From an uncultured Piscirickettsiaceae bacterium (GTDB taxonomy: Bacteria > Pseudomonadota > Gammaproteobacteria > GCF-002020875): 52,035 nt of DNA. Where the stretch lies: positions 1 through 52,035 of the forward strand of contig CAYQFH010000002.1 of the NCBI GenBank assembly GCA_964416755.1, given 5' to 3'. The notes beneath the pieces are model-generated. The model was not told where the DNA came from, did no database searches, and saw nothing but the letters and a program-made list of their open reading frames with translations. Both the position numbers and the translations under genes were made by a program. Position 1 is the stretch's first letter. Each line of letters opens with the position of its first letter. This document shows, one piece after another, positions 3,130-47,309 of the stretch.

Positions 3130-3852
3130 TCAACGAATCTTGTGACAAGCGACACAAGGCCCCCGGTCATTATGTGGCATATCCCCGTTCTGTACCTGCT
3201 GTTGGGTAATATCGGGCGGAGGCAGAATAATCAGATCCGGATCCGGCATGGTAAAGCTGCCATCACCAATGGTATGGCAGTCGGTACAGGGGCCACGATA
3301 GGCATGAGGTCGCGGATCTCCCGGCAGGATCATCGGAGCACCCTCGGCCTGAGCAAAACCGAGCTCTAGGCGGGCACGGATGATATAGACCATGCGATGC
3401 ATCACATAACGACCATTACTATCCTTCTCCTCCCCCTTGCGCATCACAGTAACCGCTGCATGGCGCAGATTTTTCACCTGACGACTGGCCTCGACAAAAC
3501 TCTCCAGATCGGTAACCGGCATATCCTTGATTGCGACAATAATATCGCCGCCCAGCATACCGCTCAACGCTGCATTGAGTGTCACTTCATTGATGATCAC
3601 CCCCTGCATGCCACGCGGATAGCCCAGCTGTTGACGCAGTTCGGCAGTCAGTTTCATCACGTCCATCCCCTGCCAGTGCGCTTCATAAAGCTTCATCCTG
3701 GAGGGAATGAAATTGCCGCTGCCGGGTGCAGCCAGATTGTAGACCGGATCGTTGGGTTGCTGCAGCGATGCTGAACCCGTGACCGCACCAGCCAGTGACA
3801 CAGAAGCCAGTGAAAGTGCAGCACCCATCAGCAGAGGTTGAAGTTTCACCAT
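3130..3852 (-). CDS. mamP: MamP-like protein: N-terminal hydrophobic segment, PDZ domain, two magnetochrome-type c-haem motifs
   Basis: Hydrophobic N-terminus MVKLQPLLMGAALSLASVSLAGA and a PDZ-like core GVIINEVTLNAALSGMLGGDIIVAIKDMPVTDLESF. Two copies of PH-x(2,3)-RGPC-x2-CH follow: RPHAYRGPCTDCH (CTDCH codons 3274-3288) and MPHNDRGPCVACH (CVACH codons 3142-3156). The ORF-track start at 3879 is a TTG; the ATG at 3852 lies 4 nt after the mamO-like stop. Confidence 0.75.
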   Translation of the reverse strand: MVKLQPLLMGAALSLASVSLAGAVTGSASLQQPNDPVYNLAAPGSGNFIPSRMKLYEAHWQGMDVMKLTAELRQQLGYPRGMQGVIINEVTLNAALSGMLGGDIIVAIKDMPVTDLESFVEASRQVKNLRHAAVTVMRKGEEKDSNGRYVMHRMVYIIRARLELGFAQAEGAPMILPGDPRPHAYRGPCTDCHTIGDGSFTMPDPDLIILPPPDITQQQVQNGDMPHNDRGPCVACHKIR

Positions 3853-3856
3853 AATC

Positions 3857-5860
3857 TTACTGCAATAACAGGAGTGCAAACGCGATCACCAGCATGATCC
3901 CGATAAAGGTCCAGCGCTGCTGGGTCACTGTGGTCCGCTCCTGGAAGTAGTAACCGAGGAAACCACCACCATAGGTGCTGGGCACCAGAATCATGGCCAG
4001 CGTGAGCGGAGTCTGCCACTCAAAGGAGCCAATGGAGACACCATAACCCAGAGAGACCAGTGTTGCAGTCAGAGAGGCCCAGAAGACCATCACAATGGCA
4101 TTGGCTCGTGCATTCTCGGCAGAAAGCCCCGCATATTTGCGCTGGAAGTACTGCTCCACTACGCCACCACTCACCCCCAACAGACCGGTCAAAATGCCAA
4201 GAGGGCCACCCATGATGGGGGAAGTTGCCCAACCGCGCCGTACGTCGACCTCTTCCGAGTCAAGCAGGAAATTATCGATACGCTCCTCTTGATTCCTGGC
4301 CACCGGGCGCACATGGGATTCACGCTCTTGCAGATCTCCGCGCAACTCAAAATAGACCACCAGCGCCATTGCCAGCGCAAAGAGACCGAGTAAATAGCCG
4401 ATCACATGATCATAGAGATTATGTCCGAGGAAGTAGCCCAATACCGCACCCACGATGGTAGCCGGTAACAGCTCCTTGATACGGCGGGTAATGATCACCC
4501 CGGCAAACAGCTGGCGCAGGGCGGCAATACCGTAGGTGAAGAGGTTGGTGATGTAGATTACCGGACGCACCATGAAGACACCGTAACCAAACACCAACAT
4601 CATTCCGGCCACGGCGACAATGCCCCCTCCCATTGGTACCAGTGTACCCACTGCACCCGCAAAGACTCCCAACAATACCAGCCCGACAATGGCATCCAGC
4701 TTATAGAAGCCGAGATCAAAGCTGGAGTCATGCTCCAGATCCATCAAGCTGACCGAGTCCCCCGGTGCTCCGATATGCGCTACCCGCTGTTGCCCTTCTG
4801 CGGGCTCTGCGGTCACTGCAGCAACATTCTGAGCCAGTAGTGCTCCGGGATTGTTCTGATTCTGCTGATCCTGAATTGCAGCCAACTTCTCCTGACGGGT
4901 CTGCTGACGGGCCTGATCCCACCATGCAGCGGCCATCCCCTTGGCTGTACCCGACTGCATCGCACTATTTCCATTTGGAGTAATGGTTCCATTTTCAGCT
5001 GGCGCAACCGGTTTGGCAATCTTCTTCAACCCTTTGGAGGTCAGATCCACCACATCCTGAAAATGGGCACGAATCACGTGGGCAGGGACTACAAAACCTT
5101 CCGCCATCCCGCCTTGTCCCTGCAACAACAGACCGATCCCAACCAACTCTGCCTGCTGGTTGATTACCGCGCCACCGCCCTGCTCCCAACGCACCATCGC
5201 ATTGGTCTGCATCAGATGGGTTATCGGGTTGCCTGCAACCTGGCGTACCTGATCATTCAACTGCAAGATTCCAGGGTTGGCAACCACAGCCCCTTGCACA
5301 TCCTTGCCGATCGCAATCAACTGACTCTGCAGCGGAGCATTGCGGCTGTCTGCCAATTTCAGGTAGAGAAAACGATCATTGGTAACCATCTTCAGCAACA
5401 CCAGATCATGCGCTGGATGCTTCTTTACCACCTCGGTCTTGTAGAGACGAATACCGCTGCCACCCGCCACCTGAATCTGCAACTGATCCGGGTTATTTAC
5501 ACTGTGCAAAGTGGTAATGACATAACCATCCGGGTGCACTAAAACACCTGAAGAAACAACACCAGCACCTTGATTTACAATGGAAACAACCGCTGACCCA
5601 GCTGGAGTAACCAGATCAGTCTGTCCACCGGCAATATTCAAGCCACCCGCAAGACCACTCTGCGGTGTAGTATCCGAGGAGAACGATGAGAAGAAGTTGC
5701 TGACCGCATAGGATTCAACCTCATACTCTTCCAGATCAACATCATAGAGGTAGAGCGCCCAACCAAATAGCATCAGTGCTGCCAATGGCAACAGTGCCAG
5801 CGGGATCTGCCACGGCCTTTTACAGAAGACGATTTTGTTATCTAATCCTGCGAGTTTCAT
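3857..5860 (-). CDS. mamO: MamO-like fusion: TM anchor, degenerate trypsin/HtrA-like domain, C-terminal TauE/SafE-type transporter domain
   Basis: 667 aa. The protease-like region keeps His (YVITTLHSV) and Asp (HPAHDLVLLKM), but the GNSGG nucleophile box reads EQGGGAV (Ser replaced by Gly). The C-terminal ~270 aa are multi-TM with TauE-like glycine-rich helices (PMGGGIVAVAGMMLVFGYG, GILTGLLGVSGG). Confidence 0.75.
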   Translation of the reverse strand: MKLAGLDNKIVFCKRPWQIPLALLPLAALMLFGWALYLYDVDLEEYEVESYAVSNFFSSFSSDTTPQSGLAGGLNIAGGQTDLVTPAGSAVVSIVNQGAGVVSSGVLVHPDGYVITTLHSVNNPDQLQIQVAGGSGIRLYKTEVVKKHPAHDLVLLKMVTNDRFLYLKLADSRNAPLQSQLIAIGKDVQGAVVANPGILQLNDQVRQVAGNPITHLMQTNAMVRWEQGGGAVINQQAELVGIGLLLQGQGGMAEGFVVPAHVIRAHFQDVVDLTSKGLKKIAKPVAPAENGTITPNGNSAMQSGTAKGMAAAWWDQARQQTRQEKLAAIQDQQNQNNPGALLAQNVAAVTAEPAEGQQRVAHIGAPGDSVSLMDLEHDSSFDLGFYKLDAIVGLVLLGVFAGAVGTLVPMGGGIVAVAGMMLVFGYGVFMVRPVIYITNLFTYGIAALRQLFAGVIITRRIKELLPATIVGAVLGYFLGHNLYDHVIGYLLGLFALAMALVVYFELRGDLQERESHVRPVARNQEERIDNFLLDSEEVDVRRGWATSPIMGGPLGILTGLLGVSGGVVEQYFQRKYAGLSAENARANAIVMVFWASLTATLVSLGYGVSIGSFEWQTPLTLAMILVPSTYGGGFLGYYFQERTTVTQQRWTFIGIMLVIAFALLLLQ

Positions 5861-5890
5861 CTACTACACCATGATTTACGCTATCACCAA

Positions 5891-5933
5891 GAACAGACAA
5901 AGCCCCTGCAAGGTTGTACTCCTCAGCAGGGGC
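5891..5933 (-). terminator. GC-rich hairpin plus T-rich tail between the mamC-like and mamO-like genes (possible partial terminator/attenuator)
   Basis: The minus strand reads GCCCCTGC-(16 nt)-GCAGGGGC followed by TTTGTCTGTTCTT. The 8-bp perfect stem is at 5902-5909 / 5926-5933. Confidence 0.35.
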
Positions 5934-5959
5934 AGAGCGACTAAAACGACAACCGAATA

Positions 5960-6325
5960 TTAAGACTCAACGCCTTCAGCAAGAATTTCGTCCGCCTCAT
6001 CATTGTCACGCATGCGCAGCTCCAGCTGCTCCATGCCACGATCATAGGCATACTTGGCACCGGTTGCAGCAACCAGCGCAGTCCCCAGAGAGACCGCCAA
6101 ACCACCACCTACCGCACCAGCGGCCACTGCACTGAAAGCCGTTGCCAGCCCAGCACCCAGCCCCTCTTTACCAGTGTCATAGATTGCATCCTTGGTCTCT
6201 ACCAGACCATCACGGTGATCCTTGATATTCCTGGCCGCTGCACCAGAAGCACCAACCACCGCACCGAGCACACCCACACCGGAGGCGCTCTGTGCCAGAT
6301 ATTGCGCCAAATTAAATGCTGCCAT
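5960..6325 (-). CDS. mamC: MamC (Mms13/Mam12)-like small two-helix magnetosome membrane protein homologue
   Basis: 121 aa, with an ATG preceded by a GAGGGAGAA SD. It aligns by eye over nearly its full length with MamC as I remember it: [16 protein letters not shown], then [40 protein letters not shown], then an acidic tail. Confidence 0.75.
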   Translation of the reverse strand: [121 protein letters not shown]

Positions 6326-6361
6326 CTTCGTTCTCCCTCAATCTTCCAACAAGGATATATT

Positions 6362-6390
6362 GTTATAAATACTTCGACTTCCGTACACAA
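6362..6390 (-). promoter_or_regulatory. Candidate sigma-70 promoter upstream of the mamC-like gene
   Basis: Minus strand TTGTGT-(17 nt)-TATAAC. The -10 is at 6362-6367 and the -35 at 6385-6390 in plus-strand coordinates. The -35 is weak. Confidence 0.25.
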
Positions 6391-6451
6391 TCGAAAGTCT
6401 GAAGATCGATTAAACCATGTCCAAATGGAGTTGGCAAATCAATCTGTTTGC

Positions 6452-7048
6452 TCAGAAAAGCATCAGGTCATCTGCATTACGGTTACCGTACGCTTTGGCC
6501 TCCTGAATGGCCTCCTCTTTGGTCGCGCCACGCAGCAGCGCATCAAACAGCACCTTGCCCTCTTCCATGGTGAAAGAGCTGTAAACCTGATTTTGTAGCT
6601 CTTTCCACTCATTCGGGTTGAACAAGCGCTGCTGATCATTCACCAGATCGGCAGTGTTCTCCAGACTGCCTGCGATGTGGTTTAGCTGTTGGGTCAGACG
6701 ATCATAGAACTGAAAGCTGATGACTGCACTTTTCAGATCGCTGATCACCAGATCACACTTGTTATCGAGCCGATCCAGCATCTCCTGATACTGAGTACCA
6801 CAGCTCTCAGGCACTTCACCATCCACATCGCGCGCTGTCTGCTTGATTTCCTGCATATAGCGATTCATATTGGTGAAGGCCTCGATCAACGAAGTGATCG
6901 ACTCATCACCGGTAGACATGGAGTATTCGATGGCTGAGACTCCGACACGAAACATTCGTACCGTCTCTCGAACTTGACTCCAATCGAGGTCTGGCTTCTC
7001 AGCGGATGACGGAACGGATCGCAACTCACTCATGAATAATGCACTCAA
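6452..7048 (-). CDS. Soluble hypothetical protein with a CheZ-like F-Q-x-x-D-R-L-T-Q-Q helix motif
   Basis: 198-aa ORF (TTG 7048; first ATG at 7033) with no TM segment. The ISFQFYDRLTQQLNHI segment is reminiscent of the CheZ DFQDLTGQ active-site helix. The function is not established. Confidence 0.5.
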   Translation of the reverse strand: MSALFMSELRSVPSSAEKPDLDWSQVRETVRMFRVGVSAIEYSMSTGDESITSLIEAFTNMNRYMQEIKQTARDVDGEVPESCGTQYQEMLDRLDNKCDLVISDLKSAVISFQFYDRLTQQLNHIAGSLENTADLVNDQQRLFNPNEWKELQNQVYSSFTMEEGKVLFDALLRGATKEEAIQEAKAYGNRNADDLMLF

Positions 7049-7105
7049 AGAAAAACAATTAAGAATCTTCTTATTCTATCACGCCCGTTTTTCACTGCAC
7101 AGCGG

Positions 7106-7519
7106 TTATCGACGTCCAAACAGCCGGGAAAGCATTCTGAATGGGTGGCGAATCGCATAGGTTGTACTCTTCTTCTTCAGCAGTTTGAACTCCACCGCAG
7201 TCAACATATAGATGATCTCGCGGCTCAGGGCCTTTACCTCCAACAGCGCCTCGTTGGCCTCCTCTTTTCGACCGTGCTTATGGGAGCGAATCACCCGCCT
7301 CACCGCTTGGTGAAACTGTTTATGGTCACGCTCCAACTGCTGAATCTCGACATTGTTGCCAAACTCCCGCAATCCCTCCTCATAGAGCCATACCCCCAGC
7401 GGACAGTCCTCATGGGAGTCCACCTCAAGATGCTGCAGATGGTGTGTATCCAGCAACTCCTCCAGCTGCAGTTCCCAGGAGAGATGCACCAACCGCATAT
7501 AACCCAAATCAGAAATCAT
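7106..7519 (-). CDS. Stand-alone CZB (chemoreceptor zinc-binding) domain protein
   Basis: It matches the remembered CZB pattern exactly. HLSW (H-x2-W) is followed by 23 aa, then CPLGVW (C-x-L-G-x-W), then 21 aa, then HKQFH (H-x3-H). Its ATG overlaps the stop of the upstream ATPase-like gene (ATGA at 7516-7519). Confidence 0.85.
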   Translation of the reverse strand: MISDLGYMRLVHLSWELQLEELLDTHHLQHLEVDSHEDCPLGVWLYEEGLREFGNNVEIQQLERDHKQFHQAVRRVIRSHKHGRKEEANEALLEVKALSREIIYMLTAVEFKLLKKKSTTYAIRHPFRMLSRLFGRR

Positions 7520-8556
7520 GAAAGTCCCTTTCTCTTGAATAAAACCATGGAACGAATCTCCAGACGGTAACGCAATTCGCCACTGATCCTCCCCTCAAGA
7601 TGGCTGGAGAAGCTACGCTCAATCACCAGATCTGGAGTCAACTGCAAACAATAGATGGTCTTCCCTCCCTGGGCACTGCTCTGCAGAATGCGTGCACGCC
7701 GCCTCGACTTCTCATCAAATACGATATCTTCCGGCCGGATCAGCAGTTCAAGACGTGTTCCGTCCGGCAACCCGAAACCGGTGGGATGGTCAATCATGCC
7801 GAGCTCTGTATCGAGGCGCAGTTCATCATGCACTACCCCCTTGACCAGCACACCCGCTCCCATATAACGGGCCACACTCCGCTTCTGTGGTGTCGCATAC
7901 AGCTCCTGCGGTGCGCCCCACTGCAGCAGAATTTCGTTCTCCATCACACCGGCAAAATCACCCGCAAAAAGTGCGCCTTGCCGCACTGCCGTGGAAAGCA
8001 AAATACCGCAACCAAAATGTTCCACGATCCCCTCCAGACGATCCAGCAGGCGATAACGTGCCTCCACGCCAAGATCGAGCAGCGGCTCCTCCAGCAGCAG
8101 CAATACCGGACGGGTTACCAGTGCACGGGCAATCAACAGATAGCGTCTGGTCTCTTCATCCAGGACATCGGGGTAGCTGGCAGCATAATCCGCCAACTTC
8201 AACCCGGAAAGCACCTTCATACAGTGCTCACGCTTGTTGGAAATCCTGAAGTTCTGCAACACCAGACGCAGATTATCCAAAATAGTAAGATGTGGGTAGA
8301 AGCTTCCATCTCTCGGCACCCAGGCAATGGGGCGCTCCCAAGGGGGGGGAATTTTGCCACTCCGTGCAATCAGATCCCCACGCAGAAAGATCTCCCCCTC
8401 TTCAAACCCTTTCAATCCGGCGATCAGGCGGAGCAGTTCCCCTTTACCACTCTCCTCCTCCCCTAGAAGCAGACCGAGCTTACGCTCGGGAAGCGCCAGA
8501 GAAACTCTGGCACCGGTTGGCATTTGCAGTTGATGCAGCTTGAGTAGGTCAGCCAT
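7516..8556 (-). CDS. FbpC/PotA-family ABC ATPase-like protein with degenerate catalytic motifs and a C-terminal TOBE-like domain
   Basis: Collinear with ABC importer ATPases, but each motif is altered. Walker A is GEEESGKG (not GxxGxGKS/T), the signature is LDEETRRY (not LSGGQ), Walker B is LLLLEEP (not hhhhDEP), and the H-loop His is absent (LLSTAVRQ). The C-terminal LLIRPEDIVF block resembles FbpC. The ATG at 8556 overlaps the permease stop by 8 nt; the ORF-track GTG start is at 8580. Confidence 0.8.
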   Translation of the reverse strand: MADLLKLHQLQMPTGARVSLALPERKLGLLLGEEESGKGELLRLIAGLKGFEEGEIFLRGDLIARSGKIPPPWERPIAWVPRDGSFYPHLTILDNLRLVLQNFRISNKREHCMKVLSGLKLADYAASYPDVLDEETRRYLLIARALVTRPVLLLLEEPLLDLGVEARYRLLDRLEGIVEHFGCGILLSTAVRQGALFAGDFAGVMENEILLQWGAPQELYATPQKRSVARYMGAGVLVKGVVHDELRLDTELGMIDHPTGFGLPDGTRLELLIRPEDIVFDEKSRRRARILQSSAQGGKTIYCLQLTPDLVIERSFSSHLEGRISGELRYRLEIRSMVLFKRKGLS

Positions 8557-9295
8557 AGATAAAGGGCCCAAGTGCAACACCCAATGGCGTATAGAGCAGT
8601 GAAATCATCATCACCAGCAGCGTCCCTCGTGTCTTCATCGACACACGCCCTGCGCTTATCTGTTCAGGCAAAACCCGTGGCAATCTCCTGTAACTGCCCA
8701 GCAAGAGTGTCAGCGAAAGAGAGAGCAGCAGAACCCACTGCAGCAGCAACAATGGCTCTGGCTGTTCCAGAAGATAGAGCACCACCGGCAATGTCTCCAC
8801 CCCCAGCCGCTCAGCCACCCCGAAATCAAAATTGACCACCAACAGGGAGGCACCAAACACCCAAACCATCAACCGCAATAGCAGTGGTCGAACCACCATC
8901 GCCGGAGCCACACGATCAACCAACCCCAATTGGTAGCGCTGTTCACGCCCTACAGCCGCTGTGACTGCAAACAGTTTGACTGCAAACAGGGTTGAGAGGG
9001 CCACAGTTGAGAAAAGCAGCACAAAGAGGAGCGCAATACGCCCTTGGAAGAGTTCAATCCAGTGCAGCGGTACCCCTTCTGCAACCAATCTGGCCGGGGT
9101 AAGCAGCGCACTGAACACCGCCCCCCAGGCGATCCAGCGCATCAGCGTGCTGATTCTGCGGGTCACCAACATCCAGCCAATCCACCCTGAAAGCGGAAAT
9201 ACCAGGAGAGAGAGCGCCGCAGTTAATAACAGAGACTCCAGCAGCGGGGCAACGGCTGGAGGAAATTCAAGAAGCGGAAAATAGGACAGACTCAT
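8549..9295 (-). CDS. Multi-TM ABC permease-like membrane protein (divergent)
   Basis: 248 aa with about 6 hydrophobic segments and a weak EAA-loop-like stretch, FGVAERLGVETLPVV. Translationally coupled to the ATPase-like gene. Confidence 0.55.
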   Translation of the reverse strand: MSLSYFPLLEFPPAVAPLLESLLLTAALSLLVFPLSGWIGWMLVTRRISTLMRWIAWGAVFSALLTPARLVAEGVPLHWIELFQGRIALLFVLLFSTVALSTLFAVKLFAVTAAVGREQRYQLGLVDRVAPAMVVRPLLLRLMVWVFGASLLVVNFDFGVAERLGVETLPVVLYLLEQPEPLLLLQWVLLLSLSLTLLLGSYRRLPRVLPEQISAGRVSMKTRGTLLVMMISLLYTPLGVALGPFIYG

Positions 9296-9325
9296 CCGCC
9301 CTATTCTACCGCATCCATCTGGTGC

Positions 9326-9520
9326 TTAAAGTGAGTAGTTGTCTCTCAATCCCAATTTATTGCGATATGCCTCAGACTGATAGTGATCTCTTCGCTGACA
9401 ACAGAGGTTCCACAATCGAGAAACCTTGTAGAGAGAGAAAGAGAGCACCCCACTGAGAACTACTTTGGCGACAACCAGTACAGAAATTCCGAGAGAGGCA
9501 GCAATCAACATCATGATCAT
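9326..9520 (-). CDS. Small (64-aa) membrane protein, first gene after the Fur-box promoter
   Basis: The ATG at 9520 has an AAGGAG SD 7 nt upstream. The sequence is MIMMLIAASLGISVLVVAKVVLSGVLSFSLY followed by a basic/Cys tail. The longer ORF-track start at 9628 would overlap fur. Confidence 0.5.
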   Translation of the reverse strand: MIMMLIAASLGISVLVVAKVVLSGVLSFSLYKVSRLWNLCCQRRDHYQSEAYRNKLGLRDNYSL

Positions 9521-9557
9521 TATGGTACTCCTTACCTTGTTTGAACCAGTAAGGAGC

Positions 9558-9585
9558 ATTATATGCAAATGATAACGATTATCAA
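9558..9585 (-). promoter_or_regulatory. Sigma-70-type promoter with an embedded Fur box
   Basis: The minus strand reads TTGATA-(16 nt)-TATAAT. The 19-mer at 9565-9583, gcaaatgataacgattatc, matches the Fur consensus GATAATGATAATCATTATC at 15/19. The core palindrome TGATAAC-G-ATTATCA (9570-9584) lies across the -35/spacer. Confidence 0.7.
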
Positions 9586-9593
9586 TAGATATT

Positions 9594-10028
9594 TTACTCT
9601 TTTTTCTGGCAACTTCCGCAGACACCATAGAGCGTCAATGCATGGTCAGAGATCTGGAAAGAGTAATTGTCAGCAATTTCATGCTGCAGCTTCTCTATCT
9701 TGGCCTCAAAGAACTCCTCCACTGCACCACAGCTGGTACAGAGCAAATGGTCATGATGATCTCCACGATCCAACTCGAACACCGAGTGGCCGGTCTCGAA
9801 ATTGTGCCGCTTGAGTATTCCAGCCTGCTCGAACTGGGTCAATACGCGATAGACAGTGGCCAGTCCGATCTCCTCCTCTTTTTCGATGAGCGTACGGTAG
9901 ACCTCTTCTGCACTGAGGTGAATCTGTTCGCTCTCCTCCAGTAGCGCCAAAATACGCATACGGGGATGCGTTACCTTCAGGCCAGCACTCTTCAGTTGCT
10001 CTTTTTCAGATAGCGATTGATCAATCAT
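9594..10028 (-). CDS. fur: Ferric uptake regulator Fur
   Basis: 144 aa with LKVTHPRMRIL, ATVYRVLTQFEQAGI, the HHDHLLC-x2-CG motif and a C-terminal CGSC. A full-length Fur-family match. Confidence 0.95.
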   Translation of the reverse strand: MIDQSLSEKEQLKSAGLKVTHPRMRILALLEESEQIHLSAEEVYRTLIEKEEEIGLATVYRVLTQFEQAGILKRHNFETGHSVFELDRGDHHDHLLCTSCGAVEEFFEAKIEKLQHEIADNYSFQISDHALTLYGVCGSCQKKE

Positions 10029-10037
10029 CCCCCCCCC
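10029..10037 (-). repeat. Homopolymer G9 (minus strand) between the SD and the ATG of fur
   Basis: The plus strand has 9 consecutive C at 10029-10037. The minus strand reads AGGAAGGGGGGGGGATG. Confidence 0.9.
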
Positions 10038-10080
10038 TTCCTATTTTCATTCATGGTATCTATACAAAACAGAACAACTG

Positions 10081-11283
10081 TCAGAAGCGGATCGCTGTAC
10101 TGACCGGCTGCTCACCCTGTCTGATTTGTTGCTTTATGTCATCAATTTTATGTTGAAGCTGCAGTGTAGCATGCTTGACGATCTGATTGACCTCTGCCGA
10201 AGTGGTCACTGCATGTAATTTACTATTCAGCGCCTCCAACTGGCGACCATTGCTCTTTCTCACTTCACCAATCTCATAGCGCAACTCTTCCACAATACTC
10301 TTTTCACGACCATCCCCTCGCTGCAGTACCCCCTCATCCGCAGTCACCGGTATCCGTTGCTGGGAGAGCTGCTCCAACTGTTCAGCAAGCTGCTGCTGCG
10401 TCTGCTCAACAACTGCAAGTTGCTGCCTTAGCGGTTCCAGCAACGGTCGTAATTGCAACTCGGCAGGCACTTGCATGGAATCTATCTCATCTGTTGCTCC
10501 ACTGCCCTCAATCTGCTGCTGCATCTTCTGCATCAGGGCTGACTGTTCCGCAATCTGTCTGCTCTGCTCCAGAACCAACTGTTGAGTCTGCTTCAGTGCT
10601 CCCTGCAGTTGCTGCATTAATTGCGCCTGTTCAGCCTGCTGCTGTCTCGAATCATCAACAGCCTGTCTTGACTGTGCCAGCTCTTCATTCAACTGAGAAA
10701 AGCGTTGCTCGACCCCCCTGGAGATTTCGGCAGATTGCCGGGGTGCCACAGGTTGCTGTTGCCGGTTCAGTTCATTCAACTGCTGTTGCAGCTGAGCGAC
10801 TCTGTCCTCCATCTCCCGCAATTGCAGAGATTGAACCTCAGTCGAGTCACTTCCTCCCCCCTGTTCCAACTGATCCATACGCTTACCGATCCGGATCTGC
10901 TCCCGGCGGCTATTGGCCACCAGCTTGCCAATCTCACCCCGCATTTCATCCAGCGTAGAGGGAACCCCATCAATACGCTCTTTTAGCAACGCGACTTCAG
11001 ACTCCAACTGTTTTACCTCATGCTCAGAGAGGCTGGGAACGGGAACCACAACGGGTCGGGGCACTTCGCTCATCTCCTCAAGCGGCTGCTTAATCAGAAA
11101 TTCGGAAGTGACCGGCTCAATCACCGGTTCAGGCACACTATCCCCCTGCTGTATCAGCTGACCCAACGCATCGCCCTTAAAACAGCGATCCTCCCCAGGA
11201 CGATAGATGGCTTCTCCCAAATGGTCACCACTCACCTTAATACGGTCAAGCACCTGATTGCTAATCGATGAATCTACTTTCAT
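10081..11283 (-). CDS. Gln/Glu-rich coiled-coil protein of unknown function
   Basis: About 400 aa of heptad-like Q/E/L-rich sequence (LQQQLNELNRQQQ, QQQAEQAQLMQQLQG) after a ~60-aa N-terminal globular segment. The ATG at 11283 is preferred over the ORF-track GTG at 11373. Confidence 0.6.
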   Translation of the reverse strand: MKVDSSISNQVLDRIKVSGDHLGEAIYRPGEDRCFKGDALGQLIQQGDSVPEPVIEPVTSEFLIKQPLEEMSEVPRPVVVPVPSLSEHEVKQLESEVALLKERIDGVPSTLDEMRGEIGKLVANSRREQIRIGKRMDQLEQGGGSDSTEVQSLQLREMEDRVAQLQQQLNELNRQQQPVAPRQSAEISRGVEQRFSQLNEELAQSRQAVDDSRQQQAEQAQLMQQLQGALKQTQQLVLEQSRQIAEQSALMQKMQQQIEGSGATDEIDSMQVPAELQLRPLLEPLRQQLAVVEQTQQQLAEQLEQLSQQRIPVTADEGVLQRGDGREKSIVEELRYEIGEVRKSNGRQLEALNSKLHAVTTSAEVNQIVKHATLQLQHKIDDIKQQIRQGEQPVSTAIRF

Positions 11284-11433
11284 GACGTCCAGTATAAAAG
11301 GAGCCCTCTGACAGCACAACAGAACAACTGGATAAGGAAACGCCTGTTTTGCAAACTGTCTCTTCAGATCCACAGCATATGGACGCTAAATTCAGAGAAC
11401 CAACAGAAGAAAAACATCAATGGGACAAAACCA

Positions 11434-11628
11434 ATGAAACAGACAAAGAATTCTTCCCTCTCTCAAAAACACGAGATTCACTGGAATGCTGTTGGTGCTG
11501 GACTGGTCACTGCTGCCTTTATCTACCCTGAACAGCAGACCATTCTACTCTCCATGGGTGGCTCCAGCTTTATAACGGGAGTTATTCAGAAGCTGAGCAA
11601 GCGGAGACAACAGTCTGCCATTCAGTAA
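11434..11628 (+). CDS. Possible small hypothetical protein
   Basis: 64-aa ORF ending 40 nt before a strong terminator. The SD is weak and no family was recognised. Confidence 0.3.
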   Translation: MKQTKNSSLSQKHEIHWNAVGAGLVTAAFIYPEQQTILLSMGGSSFITGVIQKLSKRRQQSAIQ

Positions 11629-11667
11629 CCACACTACACCATGCAATAAACAGTAATTACTGCGTTC

Positions 11668-11706
11668 AAAAAAGCCCCCGGCTACACTGTAACCGGGGGC
11701 TTTTTT
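11668..11706. terminator. Bidirectional rho-independent terminator
   Basis: AAAAAA-GCCCCCGG-(11 nt)-CCGGGGGC-TTTTTT lying between convergent genes. Confidence 0.8.
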
Positions 11707-11740
11707 CAGCTGAGCCAATCGAGAACCGAGTACTCACAGC

Positions 11741-12019
11741 CTACCCAAACTCGTGCTCCTCATCAAAGATCTCATCGTGATGAGCACCTGCATGGCTGAC
11801 ACGATAAACCAGATAGATCAGATAAGGGGCTGCAACCAGAAGAATGACTCCAACATTCAGATTACCGGGAATCAGGCCATCATAGAAGCGGTCCAGATTG
11901 ATCCAGCCGGTCACAATCGACACGCCAATCGGGATCACAAACAGGCCAATCGAGAACCACACCAGAAAACGCAACCACTCCGTCCCTAACCACTCCGCAC
12001 AACAGATCACTCTATTCAT
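11741..12019 (-). CDS. Small two-TM membrane protein with an acidic/His-rich C-terminal tail
   Basis: The ATG at 12019 is preceded by AAGGTGAG. There are two hydrophobic helices, and the tail reads HAGAHHDEIFDEEHEFG. Confidence 0.55.
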   Translation of the reverse strand: MNRVICCAEWLGTEWLRFLVWFSIGLFVIPIGVSIVTGWINLDRFYDGLIPGNLNVGVILLVAAPYLIYLVYRVSHAGAHHDEIFDEEHEFG

Positions 12020-12257
12020 CACACTCACCTTAATCCGAAAAACGCTTTATCTATAACAACAAACTTACATAAATAATAATCTATAAGATTTGTTACTGAA
12101 ACCAATACAACAAATGTGCCAAGTGAAACGACAGTTTCTTGTCACTGGCGATATAACATTGAATTTCATGGAGTAAGCGAAAAACATTTCACAATCGAAA
12201 TATTACCAATATGTTATATTTGGCGTTTTATTCAGCCGATCACAACCGCTGCCTACT

Positions 12258-15200
12258 ATGCTTCTCCAGCCGCTGGCACTTTTTCGAAAATTGAAATTGA
12301 TCCACAGGATTCTGATCCTCCAGATCCTGTTGCTGGTTCCGTTTGTCCAACTGCTGCTCCACCACAATCAATCAGTCAGTGCGCTGCAATCCGAGAACAG
12401 ACTCTTCTCTCAAGGGGTGGAAAAAGTGCGGCAGCTTTCTCTGTTGCAAGAGCATATTGCACAATATCGCGGCCTTCACCATGGAGAGCAACAACGATCA
12501 CGCCCTGCCCGTTCCGAGACAACCGAACTACTGAAAGAGCTTCACCAGAACATTGACAGCGAAATTGCATCATTGAGTGACGCTACACTCCCCACACTCA
12601 ATCCGCATCTGATTGAGATCATCCAGACGCAGTGGCAGGCACTTGCCCACTCCTCCAACTCACATAAAGCCGACCATTTCAGCGGCTATACGAGACTGAT
12701 CAGTCAGGTTCACCACCTGATCAAACAGGTCTCCACAGTTAGCTCCCCAAAACTCAATCCCGAGCACCCGGAACTCCTCAAGATATACTCTCTCTCGACC
12801 CACACCATTGCAGCACTCAAGGAGCAGATGGGACAACTGCGAGGCATCACTTACGGAGCCCTTCAATCTGGACAGGATTTGACCAGCAATCAGCAGTTCC
12901 AGGTGCTGTTACCTATTACACTGTCTAAAATCGCAACCTACCGGGCTCTGGTTCGGGATCAACTCGTTGGCATTTACCAGTATAGCCCTGAACTCTACAG
13001 AGAGAGCTTTTCACTCTTTTCCGACTACTCCATCGAGTTGGCAGCACTCTTTGAACTGCTCAATTGGGAACTTGAAAACACTAGCGACGACTCTTCCTCG
13101 CTGCAACTATTCCAATCACCAGATGCCTTTTTCCAGCAGGTCAGTTTTCAGATCGAGCTGCTCGACCAGCTTATCCAGAATCTCTTTGCCCACATTGAGC
13201 AGCATCTGGCAGAAGAGCAGCAACAACTTATCCTCGAACATAACCGGCACCTGCTTTTACTGGTTCTGATACTGATTACAGCACTCCTCTCGCTCGTCTG
13301 GGTGCTCTACGACAACAATCGGGGAAATCTACAGTTACGCAGCTATCTACAACAAAAAGACCCCCTGCAACTGAACAACATGGAGACAGGTGACCACCTT
13401 TCCAATCTCGACCATGAACACTTGCAGATTTGGCAAGCCTACCACCATCTCGAGCAACATCTGGAACATGAAACCGCCCGACTACTCACACTGAAACAAG
13501 GTGTGGACCGTGCAGCAATGATCATGATTACCGACTTGGAGGGGGCCATTCTCTATGTCAACGAGTCCCTGATTGATCGAACCGGATACAGCGAAGCAGA
13601 ATTGTTGGGCAGTAAACCCAGCATATTGAAGTCAGGAGAGACATCCAGAGAGACCTACCAACGCCTCTGGAAGAGCATTCTTGCCGGCAAGATATGGAAA
13701 AACCAGCTCGCCAACCGAAGTCGTTCCGGCGAGCTATACTGGGTTGAGGAGACCATCGTCCCGCTACTGGATGACAATGATGAAGTCCAGGAGTTCTTCG
13801 CCATCCATGTCGAAATCACGACACAGATGATTGCGGAACAGCGCCTTGAGGGGGAGGTTAAAGAGCTGAAGGCGCTGCAGTCCGTTACTACAGAACATCA
13901 AAACCAGCAGTTGGATAGCGATTTCACAGTGACCTCACAGATGGAAGAGGACAATTCCCTCCTTCCGGTAGAGCCACAGAACGAACCCATCCGTGTGCTT
14001 GCCGTAGACGATGAGAAGGCCATTCTCGATAGCTACCGCGTACTACTGAGAGAGGATGACAGCGAAGCAGTGGATCAACTGGGCTCCTTGCTTGAGGGCT
14101 CTTCCATCACGTCCGAATATACTCCCCCCTTTATTCTGGAGTGTACAACCAGTGGTGAAATAGCCGTTGAGAAGCTGCGTTCTGCAATGAACCGTGGGAA
14201 GCCCTATCAGGTAGTCTATCTGGACATGTTGATGCCTGGCGGCTGGGATGGGCTCAAAACAGCAAAAGAGATTCTGCGCATCGACCCCATGGTGAGAATC
14301 ATCGTCATCAGTGCCTGGAGTGATCATAAACCTGCAGAGCTCAAACCTGTACTCGGAGAGCACTTCATCTATCTGAAAAAACCATTCAGCCGTGAAGAGT
14401 TGATCCAGCTTACCCACTATATGGCCGAGGATTGGCGCCGCACACAACAGCTGACACAAAGCAAGGAGTCACTCTCCCAGATCATGCTGGATCTTACAGA
14501 GAGTAACAGGCAGCGTCAGCACGAACTGGATAGCCAGCGAATTTATCAGATGATTCTGGTCACACTCTCGACCAGTGCACCACTCTTTTCCGGTGATCGC
14601 CAATCCGGATACAACGAGATCACACAAGCGACACTGGAGGCGCTGGGTGTAGACCGTGTCACACTATGGCGCCTGGAGGAGGAAGAGGGTGAACAGATAC
14701 TCATTGCCGACGACTGTTATAACGTGAAAGAGCAGCAACATCACTCTGGTGCCAGACAATACACAAGAGATTATCAGGAATTCTGGAACCAGATTGAGCA
14801 CCGGCAAGTTGTTCGCATCGATGACACAGCCCCCCTGCTCGAAAGCCTTTCTCAACCATCCAACTACTTCAATGAACACGATATTCAGTCGCTGATGATC
14901 TCTCCGATCTTCTATAACAACGAACAGACCGGTGTAATCACCGCTGAGGTGCAGACAGAATCGCGCGTCTGGAAACTGGAAGAAGCGACTTTCCTCTCCT
15001 ATGTCAGCAACCTCGTTCCAACCATTGAAATCTCAGCGGCACGCAAAGATGCAGAGACTCGTGCAGAAAATGCCAACAAGGCCAAGGATGATTTCCTGGC
15101 AACAATGAGCCACGAGCTCCGCACCCCGCTCTCCAGCATGATCGGCTATGGAGACATCCTCAGCGAAAGCCCATTGAACCATGACCAGCAAGATCTGGTG

Positions 15201-44489: not shown

Positions 44490-47309
44490 CTATTCTACCA
44501 CTGCTTCAGAGTGTTTTTTCTGGTGGCCGACCCGATCAAACAGCTGCCGTATGGAGGAGAAGACCTCCTCCAGCAACTGCGACAACTGCTGGAGCTGCTC
44601 CAGAGTGACCTCATCCCCTGAACGCAACAGATGCTCGATCTCTTTAGCTTCAGCTGCCAGCGCATTAGCAGAGATGGTACCCGCTACCCCTTTTAGTGAA
44701 TGCATTAACTTGATCATTCCATCACTGTCTTCTTCCTCATTCAAGCGGGTATACTGCTCGATAAAATTCCGCTTCTCGGAGATAAAATTCTCCAGCGCAT
44801 GAAGATAGATCTTTCGATTCCCGACAACCCGCCTGACCCCTTCTGCCACAACAAGTCCGGGAAGTGCCTCCGGCCAACTTTCAACCTCTGCATCACTGCT
44901 GTTTTTTTCTACTGATATTGACGCTTTCACCACACTGGAATGTGGCTGGTGTTGTAGCGTCCGGGAGATCCATAAACCCAGCTTTTCATGCAGCTTGTCC
45001 ACTTCAACCGGCTTGGATAGATAGTCGTTCATCCCGGCCTGCAGTGCCTTCTCCCGGTCTCCCTTCATCGCATTAGCCGTCATTGCAATGACCGGAAGTC
45101 GATCAGAAGAGTAACGCTCTCGAATTTTCCGTGTTGCCTCATAACCATCCATTACCGGCATCTGAATATCCATCAAGACTGCACTAAATTGCTGCTCACT
45201 GACCTGTTCCACCGCCTCCAGACCATTATTTGCGATGGAGACACGCATACCTGCATCCAGCAAAATCTCTCTGGCAACCATCTGGTTCACCGTGTTGTCT
45301 TCAACCAGCAGCACCTCCTTCCCTTCGAGCACTGCTGAATCGCTGACCACATCAGCCTCTGAAGCCTCTTCATGAGTATCAACAGCTGTTTTCCGGGACA
45401 GTGATCGTGCAACCATATTCAACAGATGTGCCGGATAGAATGGTTTGGTGATCCAGCCAGCAAGGTCAACTCCGGTTGCCTGACTCTCAACCTCCTCACG
45501 ATGGTATGCAGTAATCATGATAATGACTGGTGGTGCTATGAGATCAAGCTCTTGCTGTATTTTTTCCGTAGTCTCAATACCGTCCAGTTTCGGCATCTGC
45601 CAATCCATCAACACCACCTGATAGGGCACCTGCTGCCATTGTGCCTGCACAAGTGCCTGGATGGCCTCTTCACCAGAGGTGACAACCTCAAGGTGCAGCG
45701 GATACTCGCTCAACGCATGCTCCAGGATCTGACGCGATGCCTCATTATCATCTACCACCAGAATTTTGATCCCATCCAGAGCCTGATGCAGATCAACCAC
45801 CTCCTGATGCATCTCACCAATCCCCAGCTGCACCGTGAAATGGAACGTGGTACCCACTCCATATTCACTCTCCACCCAGATACGCCCGCCCATGCACTCG
45901 ACCAGCTGTTTCGAGATTGCCAGTCCCAAACCGGTTCCACCATATTTTCGAGTGGTTGAGCTATCTGCCTGAGAGAATGACTGAAACAGTCGCGTCAGTT
46001 GCTCATCCGTCATTCCGATTCCGGTATCACTGACCGAGAAGTGGATCTCGGCCACCCCTTGTTGCTCCTGCTTCAGACGAGCCTCTATGACAACTTCTCC
46101 CTGCTCGGTGAACTTGATCGCATTATTGGTCAGATTCACCAACACCTGCTGCAGTCGCAGAGGATCACCAATCAGCTGCTGGGGTACGGCACGATCCACA
46201 TCAAACAACAGTTCAAGCCCCACTTCCGAGGCCTTGAAAACCGTAATATCCGCAAGCTGACTCAACACCTCTCCCAAGGAAAAGTCGATCTGTTCAAACT
46301 CCAGCTGACCCGCCTCAATCTTCGAGAAGTCGAGGATATCATTGATGATCTCCAACAGAGAGTGAGCGGAAGACTCAATCTTGTCCATATAGTCCTGTTG
46401 ATGAGAGGGCAGTTCTCCCTTCTGAATCAGGTGGGTCAAACCGATAATACCGTTCATCGGAGTACGAATCTCATGACTCATATTGGCAAGAAAATCACTC
46501 TTTGCCCGGTTGGCCGCCTCGGCCTCGCTCTTGGCCTCCTCCAGCTGGCTGGTGCGGGCAATGATCTGCTGCTCCAGGTTTTCCCGGTGTTCTGCCAACT
46601 TCCGGTCACGATTCTCAATCTGCTTCAACATCGTGCTGAAACCACTGGAGAGCACATCCAGCTCGGCAATCTCACTCTGCTGCGCACGTACCGTATAGTC
46701 CGCCTGTTCGGAAACACGATTCATCATTGCACTCAGCGCAGTCACCGGTTCCAGCACTGAACGGGTCAATCGGGAGAGGATGATTCTGGCAATGAATAGT
46801 CCCAACAGCATCGTCACGAGCGCAATCAACAACTGCCACAACAGAGTATGGTAGAGCGCAGAGAGATCAATATTGAGTAGTAACGTGCCCTGACGCTCCC
46901 CATCGTGGACCACCTCTGTTCGCAACCAGATATGACTTAAGGTTGCTCCCATCTCCTTGCTCTGGGCATCCAGATAGGGCGAGAGCAGTGAAGCACACTG
47001 GATCACCCGCTGATACTGTGAAAAGAGTGCCCCTTCACGAGTATAGAGGGCCGCACAATAGACATCCGGGGTATGACGCATGCTCATCAATAGCTCTTCT
47101 GCCGCTTTGACATCCCCAAACATCAAACTTGCACTGGCATTATCTGCCAAAATCTGGCTGCGAGCCTTATTGCTTTCGACCAGTGAGGAGAGTTGCATCG
47201 CCAGATTGGTACCAACGAAAATCACCATCACAAAACTCAGCACTGTAATCAGTGTATGACGGTTGATGCGTCTGAGCCGATGCTCCAGTTGAACCCGTTG
47301 TCGACTCAT
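44490..47309 (-). CDS. Hybrid sensor kinase (CHASE8-like periplasmic domain, HAMP, HisKA, HATPase, two REC, HPt)
   Basis: 939 aa. H-box [15 protein letters not shown] and HATPase GTGLGLAIS. The REC domains carry [12 protein letters not shown] and [12 protein letters not shown]. HPt is [12 protein letters not shown]. The N-terminal ~150 aa between two TM segments resemble CHASE8. Confidence 0.9.

Follow-up and report, generated by a model that had tools for sequence, protein, structure and literature searches.

A mamC gene with conserved putative expression signals in a complete magnetosome gene set of an uncultured gammaproteobacterium

By its sequence, the open reading frame at 5960–6325 of the window is a genuine MamC and an ordinary member of the family. 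The window is the whole 52,035-nt stretch analysed; it is contig C2 of a metagenome-assembled genome (MAG) of 224 contigs, 2.75 Mb and 95% completeness. The gene is not an orphan. The gene content of this gammaproteobacterial MAG shows it to belong to a complete set of magnetosome genes, and it heads a conserved satellite block, mamC-mamO'-mamP, which is the source of the genome's only mamP. The explanation as a whole, namely that the product is MamC (Mms13) of the magnetosome membrane, encoded within a complete mam set and transcribed as a unit of its own, is considered very probable.

The coding sequence is intact, comprises 121 codons (121 aa) and lies on the minus strand at 5960–6325, with the ATG at 6325–6323 and the TAA at 5962–5960; it is supported by the ORF list, NCBIfam NF038051 and Pfam PF26373. 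NF038051, the MamC equivalog model, is matched over model positions 1–97 of 97 with 130.3 bits (E = 2.4e-38), against a curated equivalog cut-off of 100 bits. Searched against the 2.75-Mb genome, the same model hits exactly one place, the mamC of the window, and it has no match in 14 control genomes. PF26373 (Pfam MamC) is precomputed for the protein; a Pfam-A scan of the protein returns no match, the Pfam copy scanned being one without the PF26373 model. Relatives in a large protein collection number 62, and 60 of these, including all full-length ones, carry PF26373. Among named relatives, identity is 63% to MamC of Magnetofaba australis IT-1, 57% to that of Magnetococcus marinus MC-1 and 57% to that of Magnetospirillum. 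The recognition of a MamC homologue in an earlier note, made from the letters of this DNA, is thus confirmed by the bit score and by 57–63% identity to the MC-1 and IT-1 proteins. Several proteins of "Gammaproteobacteria bacterium" MAGs are 79–80% identical and are already called MamC by NCBI; the window protein is unnamed in every source searched. In a maximum-likelihood tree it forms a well-supported clade with its genus (99/94). This clade is nested in a larger one of unnamed metagenomic sequences (97/92), separate from the clades of Magnetococcales and of alphaproteobacteria. A PDB sequence search with the protein gives chance matches only (E > 1), and a Foldseek search of the AF2 model against the PDB gives nothing below E = 0.3, with weak matches to unrelated membrane helices; the MBP-loop fusion is not among the matches. 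To our knowledge, no structure of a full-length MamC has been solved.

Gly/Ala-rich segments and a charged loop at residues 32–54 are read straight from the mamC sequence. Two hydrophobic Gly/Ala-rich helices (about 14–31 and 55–90) appear to flank a lumenal loop of about 23 residues, placed at codons 32–54 (6164–6232, minus strand), in which D46 is encoded at 6188–6190, D50 at 6176–6178 and K53-E54 at 6164–6169. The protein is small, as is the family (about 12–13 kDa), and has two hydrophobic helices round a hydrophilic loop of about 20 residues, the topology being predicted. The loop string quoted in the earlier note is correct on translation. In an alignment of 56 homologues N33, D50, T51, K53 and E54 are each at least 90% conserved: Asp stands at position 50 in 53 of the 56, and K53 and E54 are each kept in 55. 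Position 46 is Glu in 34 homologues and Asp in 16, hence acidic in 50 of 56. In the window protein residue 46 is Asp, a conservative E to D change, followed by D50 and T51-G52-K53-E54.

The literature reports Glu66 and Asp70 of the MamC loop, spaced i/i+4 on a helix at about 8 Å, as magnetite contacts or template (PMC6584501); in a loop peptide Asp14 and Gly16 were identified, that is, the D and G of D-T-G (PMC6584501). By alignment of the motif E-A-A-I-D-T-G, E66/D70 correspond to D46/D50 in the window protein and the G of D-T-G to G52. Both reported contact positions are therefore acidic in the window MamC, and T-G-K-E follows. The AF2 model (pLDDT 87), for which the 56 aligned sequences served as input, shows helices at 14–38, 44–72 and 76–120 and a turn at 39–43; because the predicted helix 44–72 spans both residues, D46 and D50 would lie one helical turn apart. 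It had been claimed that the AI-DTGKE block and the acidic residues of the loop are retained. Alignment with MamC/Mms13 orthologues agrees: D46 and D50 are acidic, D-T and K-E are more than 90% conserved in the 56 homologues, and the loop motif and contact positions are kept.

MamC of MC-1 (Mmc1_2265) and IT-1, respectively 57% and 63% identical to the window protein, is of the same length class and helix-loop-helix layout. The loop motif [ED]-A-x-x-D-T-G-K-E is common to all three, with both contact positions acidic. The window protein differs in having Asp, not Glu, at the first contact, in the more acidic N-terminal half of its loop (D36, D39, E43) and, relative to Magnetococcales, in its placement in a separate clade of gammaproteobacterial and unnamed metagenomic sequences (97/92). 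MamC/Mms13 of Magnetospirillum belongs to the same NCBIfam equivalog family, the MamC of Magnetospirillum sp. SS-4 being about 57% identical. It is described as an abundant modulator of crystal size in the magnetosome membrane (PMC3982052, PMC8536778), a role expected of the window protein too, and in one of the two papers as the most abundant magnetosome membrane protein of Magnetospirillum (PMC3982052). In M. gryphiswaldense MSR-1 and M. magneticum AMB-1 the gene lies in a mamGFDC operon, whereas mamC of the window is a putative single-gene unit before a second mamO and the only mamP. Neither mamG, nor mamF or mamD in an operon with mamC, is seen here; mms6/mamD-like and mmsF-like genes are located on contig C60. 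A literature search for the lineage returned only the six gammaproteobacterial MAGs of Uzun et al. 2020 (PMC7449369). These are of 2.1–2.9 Mb, possess mam genes only, and share with the present genome the gammaproteobacterial affiliation and the presence of mam genes; their G + C content is about 49%, versus 53% here.

Expression signals are found on both sides of the gene. The Shine-Dalgarno sequence GAGGGAGAA is located at 6331–6339 (minus strand), with GGAG at 6333–6336, 7 nt before the ATG. All eight orthologous loci have GGA at this position, and AGGAG is nearly invariant there; by this conservation the site is real. Its duplex with the 16S 3' end has −8.5 kcal/mol, that of mamO' −5.4. 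The description of this site as the best in the region holds with respect to mamO' but not beyond it, the binding-protein gene at 2470 (AAGGGAGGT, −13.4) and fur (−11.3) having better ones. The best anti-SD duplex of mamP, also −13.4, depends on pairing with GAUC added 5' of the anti-SD core and is judged spurious.

The upstream alignment covers the eight loci, namely this window, two close metagenomic relatives and five sister species, with a mean column identity of 41%. Conserved in it are the ATG, the AGGAG and the block TTG(C/T)C(A/T)-N14-TG-N-T-N-TAAT, and no other blocks. In the window the third block is a candidate sigma-70-type promoter with an extended −10 (6409–6437, minus strand): −35 TTGCCA at 6432–6437, −10 TTTAAT at 6409–6414, and a spacer of 17 nt ending in TGG (extended −10 TGn, 6415–6417). 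Positions TTG.C ... TG.T.TAAT are invariant across the eight loci. The block is kept in sister species G007, where the 198-aa gene upstream is missing, and in G005, at a mamC copy among housekeeping genes. Its pattern has a single occurrence in the window (0 expected) and likewise one in the 2.75-Mb genome; since it was derived from the same site, the case for the promoter lies mainly in the conservation. The sole reason why a consensus scan misses 6409–6437 is the T at position 2 of the −10. The conserved block is taken to be the likely mamC promoter; it is situated about 45 nt upstream of the promoter proposed in the earlier note, TTGTGT-17-TATAAC at 6362–6390 (minus strand). That string is present but poorly supported. 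It agrees with the consensus at 8 of 12 positions (3/6 and 5/6), has C at the near-invariant last position of the −10 and is unreported by the consensus scan. Its −35 is lost in the 93%-identical locus L023, the site cannot be aligned in more distant species, and conservation extends no further than the two closest relatives. It is probably not the functional promoter. An Rfam scan of 5700–6700 gives no family, and the 5' UTR bears no sign of a known riboswitch or leader. The gene directly upstream of mamC (6452–7048, minus strand) encodes a 198-aa protein without family match. Five relatives conserve this protein, a paralogue of 34% identity is encoded on contig C62, and G007 (contig C289) lacks it.

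Between mamC and mamO' a terminator-like hairpin is predicted by RNA folding at 5889–5933 (minus strand). The stem GCCCCUGC/GCAGGGGC is at 5926–5933 and 5902–5909, with a 4-bp inner stem, and is followed by the T-tract TTTGTCTGTTCTT at 5889–5901. The window hairpin is bulged, and its fold z-score is modest (−1.95). Six of the seven same-context loci keep CCCCTG...CAGGGG with a T-rich tail, and two of the pairs are compensatory. Of six loci folded separately, five fold well (z = −2.2 to −5.1), among them the one with the different, strong hairpin of the G005 mamC copy (z = −3.5); in L023 the hairpin is degraded (z = +0.55). A simple promoter/terminator scan reports neither of the two promoters nor the bulged hairpin. 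Because a conserved promoter block, a Shine-Dalgarno site and a hairpin with T-tract are all present, mamC looks like a self-contained transcription unit. The contention that the gene has expression signals of its own is thus well founded, with the promoter block at 6409–6437 in place of the site first proposed.

Codon comparisons indicate strong purifying selection on mamC and exclude relaxed selection. The closest relative with DNA, L026 (98% protein identity), differs at 33 nucleotides, with 30 synonymous and 2 non-synonymous codon changes (dS 0.42, omega 0.022); for L023 (93% identity) omega is 0.05. All omega values are pairwise NG86 estimates. Among the six species of the genus they range from 0.035 to 0.11 and are rough, since dS is saturated (>1) for most pairs. 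When eight syntenic genes are compared between this genome (G000) and sister species G010, mamC comes lowest in both dN (0.04) and omega (0.035); the omega of fur, 0.063, is higher. The open reading frame is intact in all six carrier species. Gene decay is excluded because mamC is intact, is under strong purifying selection and has conserved expression signals of its own. The earlier argument that an intact copy speaks against simple decay is accordingly strengthened by an omega of 0.022, by values of 0.02–0.11 overall, all purifying, and by the rank of the gene as the most constrained of the eight.

Core mamAB genes are not visible within the window, the flanks of which are two-component and ABC genes. 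Directly downstream of mamC is mamO' (3857–5860, minus strand), a second MamO paralogue with trypsin-like and TauE domains (Pfam Trypsin_2 and TauE), for which NCBIfam MamO is the best match at 532 bits, below the cut-off of 800. Two genes downstream of mamC is mamP (3130–3879, minus strand), with 299.6 bits to NCBIfam MamP against a cut-off of 300; in a search of the genome itself it is the sole MamP-like gene, all other matches being at or below 41 bits. The remaining magnetosome genes are on three other contigs. C60 carries mamH (624 bits), mamI (85.6), mamE (487) and mamK (494), a gene for an acidic 477-aa protein, a mms6/mamD-like gene and a mmsF-like ORF, the last of these matched by no family model and named by eye. 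C58 carries an 80-aa mamL-like ORF (mamL?), mamM (442 bits) and the first mamO (571 bits). C167 carries mamA, mamQ, mamR, mamB, mamS and mamT. MamH, MamI and MamK (C60), MamM (C58), and MamQ and MamB (C167) are above their NCBIfam cut-offs; MamE, MamO, MamA, MamR, MamS and MamT are best matches below theirs. The mam genes of C58, C60 and C167 are free of internal stops. With mamC encoded beside mamO' and mamP, and with the core mam genes present elsewhere in the genome, the puzzle implied by the earlier note, a MamC without magnetosomes, disappears.

The end of C167 (L031) and the start of C58 (L012) share an exact 55-nt overlap, which joins mamL?-mamM-mamO to mamA-Q-R-B-S-T. By this overlap mamA follows mamO after about 38 nt, which leaves no mamP in the main mamAB operon. 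In four sister genomes mamO and mamB are spaced by about 2.0–2.1 kb, in agreement with such an operon. The two MamO proteins (window 3857–5860; L012:11–1945 on C58) are both full-length, with trypsin-like and TauE parts, and are only 36.6% identical; for this reason they are regarded as old paralogues, and an assembly duplication of mamO was rejected. The pair is kept in at least G004, G010 and G013. In G010, contig C4, homologues of window 3130–11373 directly adjoin homologues of C60 1049–11236 (mamH-I-E-K), and the mamC-mamO'-mamP block is therefore part of a magnetosome island, contiguous in that species. The junction is near 46200 of that contig (L027/L028), where a coiled-coil gene (homologue of window 10081–11373) abuts homologues of C60 9472–11236. 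At 11373–12258, approximately, the window runs into unrelated histidine-kinase genes where G010 has the C60 homologues. This indicates that, in the present genome, a rearrangement or insertion splits the island near that position. A fur gene is located at 9594–10028 of the window (minus strand; 183 bits to the ferric uptake regulator model), within a block that directly joins mam genes in G010, G005 and G007; it is a conserved part of the island in the genus. At positions 1–240 (L011, plus strand) C60 opens with the 3' portion of a second gene like mamT; it resembles the mamT of C167 without being identical to it and probably explains the assembly break.

Searches across the order (17 genomes, G000–G016) find MamC and MamO in one shared set of six genomes and MamK in eight genomes, all of one genus. 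Within the genus the distribution is patchy: of 15 species, 6 have MamC and MamO, and 8 have MamK; G011 and G012 have MamK and no match to MamC or MamO. MamC without MamO is found in no genome of the order. Carriers of mam genes are mostly of 2.5–3.1 Mb, non-carriers mostly of 1.5–2.0 Mb. Species G005 (contig C121, L029, 6282–7276; loci L013–L016) has a short 121-aa mamC with a Sel1-repeat gene, inserted between a type I secretion HlyD-type gene and a HhH-GPD gene that are adjacent in the present genome (contig C16). The product is 80% identical to the window MamC and identical to P0007, seen in 276 collection blocks. This copy is without mam neighbours and retains the promoter block, a hairpin of its own and the contact residues. 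G005 also possesses MamK and mamO'-mamP, and at the ancestral site it has a further, long mamC; because of that long copy, relocation of mamC was dropped in favour of duplication. The long MamC variant (194–206 aa, cluster P0008) has an N-terminal extension of A/P/Q/V-rich repeats. It is located in G005 on contig C77 (L049) from about 3795 onward, upstream of mamO' and broken by scaffold Ns, and in G007 on contig C47 (L022) at 1378–1962, inside the main cluster; it was not found in the present genome. In summary, mamC heads the satellite block that contains the only mamP, a copy of it with promoter block and hairpin stands among housekeeping genes in G005, and the long variant coexists with it in two sister species. 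On this basis mamC in the genus could, as a tentative reading, be a portable promoter-gene-terminator cassette, with copy number and position tuned independently of the rest of the cluster. If so, dosage control of a crystal-shaping protein would be an evolving trait in a planktonic gammaproteobacterial magnetotactic lineage.

Other explanations were weighed. A likeness to MamC produced by chance, through generic Gly/Ala-rich transmembrane helices, has a negligible probability. The protein is Gly/Ala-rich, and PDB sequence and fold searches yield only weak matches to unrelated membrane helices; yet the curated equivalog model is matched at E = 2.4e-38 and finds nothing in the 14 control genomes, and the gene adjoins mamO and mamP. 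The earlier note had named a likeness confined to such helices as what would undo its identification, but near-invariant residues (N33, D50, T51, K53, E54) lie in the hydrophilic loop too. A decaying or relict orphan mamC-mamO-mamP trio, of no current function in a lineage that lost magnetosomes, is extremely improbable. The window taken alone, with two-component and ABC genes for flanks and no core mamAB genes, would suit it, as would the patchy occurrence of mam genes in the genus (MamC in 6 of 15 species). It is contradicted by the full mam set on other contigs, without internal stops, by an open reading frame intact in six species with omega of 0.02–0.11, the most constrained of its neighbourhood, and by the conserved promoter, Shine-Dalgarno site and hairpin.

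Use of a MamC-family protein outside magnetosomes, for instance as a general small membrane or iron-handling protein, is suggested by the 80%-identical 121-aa copy that stands alone in G005 between the type I secretion set and the HhH-GPD gene. It is very unlikely: the magnetite-contact residues are kept in that copy, the same genome has MamK, mamO'-mamP and the long mamC at the ancestral site, and no genome of the order has MamC without MamO. The arrangement of transcription leaves more room. All genes from 11373 down to 1 are on the same strand with short gaps, the hairpin may be an RNA stabiliser rather than a terminator, and the candidate −10 is non-canonical at position 2; mamC might thus be co-transcribed with the upstream 198-aa, CZB and ABC genes and with mamO'-mamP, the conserved block being, for example, a regulator site. 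This is unlikely. The block has exact −35/17-nt/TGn/−10 geometry, stays with mamC where the upstream gene differs (G007, G005), and is accompanied by a hairpin even at the G005 copy without mam neighbours.

In the preferred reading, that of a magnetosomal MamC expressed from its own unit, transcription would start from the extended −10 promoter at 6409–6437 and give a 5' UTR of about 75–80 nt, and translation would start from the conserved AGGAG. The hairpin and U-tract at 5889–5933 would largely end transcription or stabilise the 3' end; read-through or an unrecognised promoter would serve mamO'-mamP. Such a layout would allow a much higher output of MamC than of MamO' and MamP, which would fit the abundance of MamC in Magnetospirillum. 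By analogy, MamC would insert in the magnetosome membrane so that its loop faces the lumen. The loop's C-terminal half, helical in the model, would present D46 and D50, then K53 and E54, and the acidic C-terminal tail (91–121) is predicted to face the cytoplasm. The acidic helical face may bind iron and magnetite surfaces and help to set crystal size, as proposed by analogy with MamC of Magnetococcus and Magnetospirillum.

The MamC family, related MAG MamC proteins and gammaproteobacterial clusters with mam genes only are known already; the window protein is a further member, and current understanding of MamC is unchanged by these results. The satellite block with the only mamP and the duplicated forms of mamC in sister species are modestly interesting, not surprising. 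For annotation, the gene receives a firm name, its likely promoter is corrected, and the main mamAB operon is seen to be without mamP, which is supplied by the satellite block. A divergent MamC clade is added in which the acidic contact pair is kept, the first position having Asp instead of Glu; it offers in-vitro work on magnetite a naturally occurring variant. The mamC-mamO-mamP trio appears to be no relic; it would work as part of a full set of magnetosome genes, in a gammaproteobacterial genus that is uncultured and little described.
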